Below, piece after piece: positions 7,463 through 7,538 of a stretch of DNA of 24,689 nt. Source of the DNA: a virus. The position numbers and the translations under genes were made by a program. Below the pieces are notes generated by a model. That model did not search any database, had not been told where the DNA came from, and saw only the letters and a program-made list of their open reading frames with translations. Each line of letters opens with the position of its first letter. Position 1 is the first letter of the stretch. The DNA lies in UHGV virus genome UHGV-1601690; one strand, 5' to 3'.

Positions 7463-7473
7463 TGGTAATCCTT

Positions 7474-7490
7474 AACAAGTGACTAGTGTT
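7474..7490. promoter_or_regulatory. Near-palindromic element AACAAGTGACTAGTGTT in the divergent darB/prt intergenic region; candidate late-promoter element
   Basis: The 9-mer AACAAGTGA recurs about 100 nt upstream of lyz (minus strand, 12498-12506). In both places it is followed about 7 nt later by a TANNNT-like hexamer. Confidence 0.3.
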
Positions 7491-7538
7491 AAATTTCCGT
7501 TCAAACACGATGCGAATTATTCTAATTAAGGTGCAATC

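Follow-up and report, generated by a model that had tools for sequence, protein, structure and literature searches.

Why does the same 9-mer, AACAAGTGA, stand both in the spacer between the divergent genes darB and prt and upstream of the endolysin gene lyz in a P1-type phage-plasmid (Punavirus), and do its two copies belong to one kind of regulatory element? From the letters of the DNA, the original prediction took them as marks of an activator-dependent (Lpa-type) late promoter element. The follow-up analysis was carried out on the window, i.e. the whole 24.7-kb stretch of DNA, which is ~98-99% identical to P1. Identity of ~98% to the P1 record AF234172 was found for window 1-9245 (P1 9775-19018), window 10517-13055 (P1 19001-21539) and window 14955-22179 (P1 24024-31252), respectively. 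The locus under study, 7463-7538, is the whole 76-nt spacer of the darB/prt pair, and the Prt protein deduced from the window shows 98-99% identity to P1 Prt.

Identification of the two sites

Both copies of the 9-mer were found where they had been reported, at 7474-7482 (plus strand) and 12498-12506 (minus strand), and no further exact copy is present in the window. The distance from the second copy to the ATG of lyz is 100 nt, in agreement with the ~100 nt originally given. A TANNNT hexamer follows each copy 7 nt downstream (TAAATT and TATCCT, respectively), as had also been noticed, and a pattern search of the window with AACAAGTGA-N7-TANNNT gave exactly two exact matches.

The two sites coincide with late promoters annotated in the P1 GenBank record (AF234172 / NC_005856) and are thus already known. 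AF234172 17251-17269 is annotated as 'late promoter LPpro' and corresponds to window 7477-7495, and AF234172 20969-20987 (minus strand) is annotated as 'late promoter LPlyz' and corresponds to window 12503-12485. LPpro is annotated in the P7 record (AF503408) as well, and LPlyz is equated in AF234172 with a late promoter identified earlier, that of gene 17. The P1 promoters are orthologous to the window sites, with 22 of 22 nt identical at each and with the flanking genes and their orientation alike; the window differs from P1 at LPpro by one extra T right after the -10 (TAAATTT in the window, TAAATTC in P1). The coordinates of these and the neighbouring features were collected in Table 1.

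Table 1. Positions in the window of the late promoters and their parts, the genes that they face and other features of the surroundings
Feature	Position	Strand	Sequence or correspondence
LPpro, whole site (AAC, box, spacer and -10)	7474-7495	+	22 nt identical to AF234172
AAC 5' of the LPpro box	7474..7476	+	source of the shifted 9-mer
LPpro '-22 region' (9-bp Lpa box)	7477..7485	+	AAGTGACTA, imperfect inverted repeat AAGT-G-ACTa; identical to AF234172 17251-17259
LPpro -10	7490..7495	+	TAAATT; AF234172 17264-17269, 'minus_10_signal LPpro'
LPlyz, whole site	12506-12485	-	22 nt identical to AF234172
LPlyz '-22 region' (Lpa box)	12495..12503	-	AAGTGATTT; identical to AF234172 20979-20987
LPlyz -10	12485..12490	-	TATCCT; AF234172 20969-20974, 'minus_10_signal LPlyz'
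LPdar (third late promoter of the same kind, upstream of lydA)	22141..22162 (matrix match)	-	AF234172 31212-31230 (window 22141..22159)
LPdar box	22159-22151	-	AAGTTACTT
LPdar -10	22146-22141	-	TACCAT
darB start	7462-7460	-	ATG
prt (portal protein, first gene served by LPpro)	7539..9260	+	ORF list; TTG start at 7539
Predicted PdarB (sigma-70-type promoter-like site facing LPpro)	7516..7545	-	consensus scan; AF234172 17292-17322
lyz (endolysin, gene served by LPlyz)	11840..12397	-	translation; annotated Lyz in P1; ATG at 12397
Ossb (C1 repressor operator, lyz/ssb spacer)	12531..12547	+	ATTGCTCTAATTAATTT, 1 mismatch to consensus; P1 Ossb/Op21
Hexapeptide-repeat acyltransferase ORF	23118-23681	+	within 22180-24689
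Tail-fibre assembly protein	23645-24262	-	within 22180-24689

Judged from these correspondences, each copy of AACAAGTGA is almost certainly the upstream half of an Lpa-dependent late promoter, LPpro in one case and LPlyz in the other. The proposal of an Lpa-type, activator-dependent late element was thus upheld, as both sites are annotated P1 late promoters, fit the late promoter model and are conserved in relatives, but its register was not, because the 9-mer lies 3 nt too far left of the true box and consists of 'AAC' plus the left 6 nt of the Lpa box. The spacer between the box and the -10 is 4 nt at both promoters. The -10 of LPpro lies 43 nt ahead of prt and that of LPlyz 87 nt ahead of lyz, both being oriented toward the gene. 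From this geometry, we infer that transcription would start near 7502 (plus strand) at LPpro and near 12478 (minus strand) at LPlyz, the latter with a predicted leader of ~80 nt.

Late promoter model and statistical evaluation

The P1 record has 11 annotated late promoters (LPmat, LPpro, LPlyz, LPdar, LPs, LPsit, LP23, LP26, LPpmgL, LPhot and LPpac). From an alignment of the full set, the consensus [A/G]AC-AAGTGACTT-N4-TANNNT was obtained, to which both LPpro and LPlyz fit. The canonical box AAGTGACTT is a 9-bp inverted repeat (AAGT-N-ACTT), and the LPpro and LPlyz boxes each match the consensus of the 11 promoters at 8 of 9 positions. The 4-nt spacer is present in 10 of the 11 promoters, that of LPhot being longer.

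For independent scoring, a weight matrix was derived solely from late promoters located outside the window, 7 in all, with LPpro, LPlyz, LPdar and LPhot excluded. LPpro and LPlyz scored 23.0 and 18.8 bits, respectively, and took ranks 1 and 2 of ~49,000 positions on both strands. Among 1000 Markov-1 random windows, a single match of at least 18.8 bits was present in 3, a match at 23.0 bits in none and two matches in none. LPdar was recovered by weight matrix too, at 19.5-21.1 bits. By every sequence-level test of membership, both LPpro and LPlyz can be assigned to the P1 Lpa-dependent late promoters.

A chance recurrence of the 9-mer, with no common function of the two copies, was weighed against this assignment. 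The copy number of AACAAGTGA taken alone leaves room for it, being only mildly above chance (2 copies vs 0.24 expected, with 2 copies also reached in 1 of 100 shuffles). Chance recurrence is nevertheless extremely improbable, because the TANNNT stands at the identical 7-nt offset at both copies, because the two sites take the first two ranks in an independent late promoter model while no random window held two such matches, and because both are in the right orientation ahead of late genes and are kept in Cronobacter phage JK004, in which the flanks are not. The strong statistics therefore come from the full promoter model and not from the 9-mer count.

In the whole P1 genome, AACAAGTGA occurs five times, and three of these copies are within the annotated late promoters LPpro, LPlyz and LP23; a fourth one is unannotated and lies inside gene 7 with a correctly spaced TAACCT. 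As a side observation outside the window, the unannotated sequence AACAAGTGACTGGTGATAACCT (AF234172 76780-76801, minus strand), inside the 5' end of gene 7, gave 20.7 bits, on par with the annotated P1 late promoters, and has a recognisable JK004 version, CACAAATGACCGGTGATACGCT. It may act as an internal late promoter of genes 24, 6 and 5, or coding constraint alone may account for it.

The fourth-best matrix match in the window (15.6-16.6 bits) is a late-promoter-like sequence, AACGAGTGAATATCGATAGCAT, at 21829-21850 (minus strand), inside lydA and 43 nt ahead of lydB. It corresponds to P1 30900-30921, where the P1 record carries no annotation. As a new internal late promoter this site was rejected, since its box is not kept in JK004; it is probably due to chance or specific to P1.

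Absence of a -35 and the nature of the polymerase

That neither hexamer has an obvious -35, as originally remarked, was borne out by a sigma-70 consensus scan, by which no -35/-10 pair using either hexamer was obtained. No TTGACA-like -35 was found 16-18 nt 5' of the two -10s, the best candidates being AATCCT and CGTAGC with 1/6 matches each. The further wording of the prediction, a late element 'rather than a sigma-70 promoter', is overstated, because by published accounts the polymerase at these promoters is the sigma-70 holoenzyme and the -10 is of the sigma-70 type (PMC1891329, PMC3152322, PMC7515715).

Constitutive sigma-70 promoters, or promoters of the UP-element or extended -10 types, that work without a phage activator would account for the sigma-70-like -10 hexamers, and the P1 record does predict sigma-70 promoters nearby, one for darB and a separate one, Plyz, for lyz. 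This explanation is highly unlikely for the two sites, given that the -35 is missing at 16-18 nt, that no TG of an extended -10 is present (GTTAAATT and ATTATCCT), that the conserved upstream block lies at -17 to -28 and not at -35, that this block recurs at all P1 late operons, and that the late genes including lyz are reported to depend on Lpa (PMC8198154, PMC10695390). LPpro and LPlyz are accordingly best read as activator-dependent promoters of the sigma-70 holoenzyme.

Symmetry of the spacer element and C1 operators

The 17-nt sequence AACAAGTGACTAGTGTT was confirmed at 7474-7490, but its description as a near-palindrome around ACTAGT was not, since only 5 of 8 positions pair and ACTAGT is off-centre. 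If AACAAGTGACTAGTGTT were an ACTAGT-centred dyad operator of another dimeric regulator (e.g. C1) for darB/prt, the partial symmetry given by the AACA/TGTT outer arms and the ACTAGT core would be explained. Such an operator, or a bidirectional use of the box as in LP26/LPpmgL, the one P1 pair that has a common box, has very little probability. Besides the incomplete pairing, ACTAGT is absent from LPlyz and is ACCAGT in JK004, whereas AAGTGAC is kept; the ACTAGT near-palindrome, being neither common to LPlyz nor conserved, was rejected as a functional symmetry. For bidirectional use, the leftward score is 10.7-12.1 bits, below the mean maximum of the random windows (12.9 bits), AGGATT would have to serve as the leftward '-10', and transcription would begin within the ATG of darB, 14 nt from the box. 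A service of the LPpro box to darB was thus ruled out by score, by spacing and by the 14-nt distance to the darB ATG.

No likeness to a C1 operator was seen at either promoter. With the asymmetric 17-bp C1 operator consensus ATTGCTCTAATAAATTT, no match with ≤3 mismatches overlaps either 9-mer, and the only such matches are elsewhere, at 7392-7408 and 12531-12547. The latter is Ossb, which controls the early ssb promoters annotated in P1 within the lyz/ssb spacer and is an element separate from LPlyz. The former, the C1-operator-like sequence ATTGCCCTAATGTATTT (7392-7408, plus strand, 3 mismatches), is within the 5'-terminal part of darB. A C1 binding feature is placed by the P7 record somewhere in a 1-kb stretch matching the darB region; the P1 record has none here.

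Conservation in relatives

Cronobacter phage JK004, in which all 125 genes are annotated as 'hypothetical', was used for comparison at a greater distance (Prt and Lpa being 82% and 67% identical to those of P1, respectively). Of the matches of the P1 matrix in JK004, the six with the highest scores precede the orthologues of mat, 23, R, 26, pacA and prt, and further matches are found at the orthologues of lyz and pmgC. By alignment, CAC-AAGTGACCA-GTGT-TAAATT is kept upstream of JK004 prt and AAC-AAGCGATTT-GGGA-TACGAT upstream of JK004 lyz. The box, the spacing and the -10 thus stand as islands in diverged spacers; at lyz, divergence affects most of the leader and a large part of the spacer upstream.

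Closer relatives were taken from IMG/VR. For prt, 79 loci (78 from IMG/VR and the window) gave 29 distinct upstream sequences, in which the variable columns were 4 of 22 in the promoter, 1 of 11 in AC plus box, 21 of 43 in the leader and 18 of 24 at the start of darB. For lyz, 81 loci (80 from IMG/VR and the window) gave 28 distinct sequences, with 1 of 22 variable columns in the promoter, 17 of 66 and 15 of 87 in the two flanks, and none in AC plus box or in the -10. The IMG/VR relatives are mostly 97-99% identical, by which the power of this conservation test is modest, and its direction is consistent at both loci.

Two further sequences were noticed in these comparisons. In the lyz/ssb spacer of JK004, a second late-promoter-like sequence, CACAAGTGATCTGCTTTACGAT (83282-83303, plus strand, 15.1 bits), faces ssb; a counterpart is absent from P1 and the window. 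Unlike the remainder of the prt leader, which varies, the block AATTATTCTAATTAAGGTGCAATCTTGG (window 7514-7541) is near-invariant in P1, JK004 and a clade of ~83% identity. Both the Shine-Dalgarno sequence with the TTG start of prt and, on the opposite strand, the -10 of the predicted PdarB overlap with this block; the agreement of the block with the C1 operator consensus (12 of 17 positions) is too weak to call.

The AC dinucleotide 5' of the box

Eight of the 11 annotated late promoters of P1 have the dinucleotide AC directly 5' of the box, as do all of the eight top JK004 matches that precede an orthologue of a gene for which a late promoter is annotated in P1. The two positions of AC hold 0.93 and 1.03 bits of information, comparable to the positions of the box, and it is invariant across the ~80 relatives at both loci. 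The '-22 region' as deposited for P1 leaves it out. As AC is asymmetric, it may belong to the Lpa site and set the direction of the promoter. Tentatively, and with somewhat less than even probability, it could be a functional extension of the Lpa site by which the palindromic box is given polarity, that is, the side on which RNA polymerase is recruited.

Proposed mechanism

Lpa binding, the requirement for SspA and the transcription starts at LPpro and LPlyz were taken from the literature. P1 has 11 late promoters with a common conserved 9-bp inverted repeat, which is the binding site of Lpa (PMC10695390). The Lpa target is centred at -22, and the host protein SspA is required as co-activator (PMC3152322, PMC1891329). 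Lpa (gp10) is a sequence-specific DNA-binding protein and is thought to contact SspA bound to RNA polymerase, SspA itself not binding late promoter DNA (PMC1891329); the partner of SspA is the sigma-70 holoenzyme (PMC7515715). Transcription of lyz is treated as Lpa-dependent (PMC8198154). In the literature search, a structure of SspA with RNA polymerase without Lpa was found and none of the complex of Lpa, SspA and RNA polymerase.

On this basis, LPpro would drive the portal/head-processing operon prt-pro, and LPlyz would drive the endolysin gene lyz. Each promoter would lack a -35 and consist of a box with its centre ~21-22 nt before the start, followed after a 4-nt spacer by a sigma-70-type -10 (TANNNT). 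According to the literature, the box would be bound late in infection by the phage activator Lpa (gp10), and Lpa together with the RNA-polymerase-associated host SspA would then allow the sigma-70 holoenzyme to initiate. The contact of Lpa with SspA would replace the -35 contact, and no other sigma factor would be involved. Because initiation depends on the activator, the late genes are expected to be silent in the prophage and in early infection and to be turned on together with the other late operons. The gene lpa is at P1 89991-90443, outside the window; from its relatives, this particular phage-plasmid presumably carries it too.

Surrounding genes

A 1.27-kb insertion of the IS200/IS605 family, ISEc42, occupies window 9246-10516, exactly at the prt/pro junction, so that the prt-pro operon is interrupted in the window; P1 is without it. 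The name ISEc42 is that of the annotation in the closest phage (ON470615.2). Its minus-strand tnpB is divided between two ORFs, 10024-10416 (HTH_OrfB_IS605) and 9293-10003 (OrfB_IS605 and TNB domain). On the plus strand of the element, 7 terminator-like hairpins were counted vs 1.7 expected, and at its end an outward sigma-70-like promoter (10399-10428, TTTATA-18-TATAAT) lies ~100 nt ahead of the pro ATG at 10529. Since ISEc42 separates prt from pro, LPpro may now serve pro less efficiently. The Prt protein of the window is matched over all 573 residues in 2 of the 80 IMG/VR loci (L012 and L080), as expected if the same ISEc42 insertion is present there; in the remaining full-length loci, the match is limited to residues 1-569 or 1-571.

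Two other parts of the window were also noted. At window 13056-14954, an OmpC/OmpF-type porin gene (Pfam Porin_1, E = 1e-135) takes the place of P1 isaA-IS1-isaB. It is present as two overlapping minus-strand ORFs (13289-14227 and 14182-14436), which suggests a frameshift or a pseudogene. Past LPdar, window 22180-24689 is unlike P1 (lydC/cin/C-segment), and two of its ORFs are given in Table 1.

Comparison with known systems

LPpro and LPlyz were re-identified here from raw sequence, and both entered the P1 GenBank record some two decades ago. There is little new in the finding itself, the activation of sigma-70 polymerase without a -35 by Lpa and SspA being well described. What it demonstrates is that activator-dependent promoters can be spotted from sequence alone, as was done in the original prediction, and that the weight matrix finds late promoters in P1-like phage-plasmids, which usually come without regulatory annotation (e.g. 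JK004). The small leads that come out of it are the conserved AC, the variant box of phage D6 with its diverged Lpa, and the IS that splits the LPpro operon.

Within P1, the closest counterparts are Ps/LPs of the tail-fibre operon, which is the prototype of the class, and the other 8 late promoters, with the same architecture as LPpro and LPlyz apart from the longer spacer of LPhot: the inverted repeat at about -22, the 4-nt spacer, TANNNT and no -35, upstream of morphogenesis, lysis or packaging operons. The boxes differ by 1-2 nt, the LPs box being AAGTTACTT, to be compared with AAGTGACTA of LPpro and AAGTGATTT of LPlyz.

In the distant P1 relative D6 (MF356679), the P1 matrix finds one good site, and the scan is uninformative as a test in a distant relative because D6 uses a different box. 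Its candidate late promoters resemble those of P1 in that they stand ahead of late genes, lack a -35 and keep a conserved upstream block at constant spacing from a TANNNT-like hexamer, but the block is AAATCACA followed by N7 and the hexamer, in contrast to AAGTGACTT and N4 in P1. Eight intergenic, correctly oriented AAATCACA-N7-NANNNT sites were found by eye (19215, 25221, 27727, 38115, 45491, 54124, 67393 and 72100), and they precede a peptidoglycan hydrolase gene, prt, ddrB, R, pmgB, 23, 7 and mat. In total, AAATCACA has 17 copies in D6 vs 3.5 expected. The Lpa of D6 is 31% identical to that of P1, whereas JK004, with the higher Lpa identity given above, keeps the P1 box, which suggests that the late promoter box and the Lpa activator co-vary.

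Beyond the P1 relatives, the C-dependent late promoters of phage Mu work like those of P1: their -35 is poor or missing, the host sigma-70 polymerase is used, and the late operons are switched on by a DNA-binding activator that the phage encodes (PMC3152322). Unlike Lpa, Mu C binds at -30 to -55 and not at -22, with no SspA requirement reported (PMC3152322), and the Mu C promoters are not of the same family. A second likeness is the MglA-SspA-PigR system of Francisella, for which P1 Lpa/SspA has been cited as a precedent (PMC1891329). There too, a DNA-bound activator makes contact with a protein of the SspA family that is associated with RNA polymerase, while the Francisella system differs from P1 in serving a host virulence regulon, in its SspA heterodimer and in its DNA sites.
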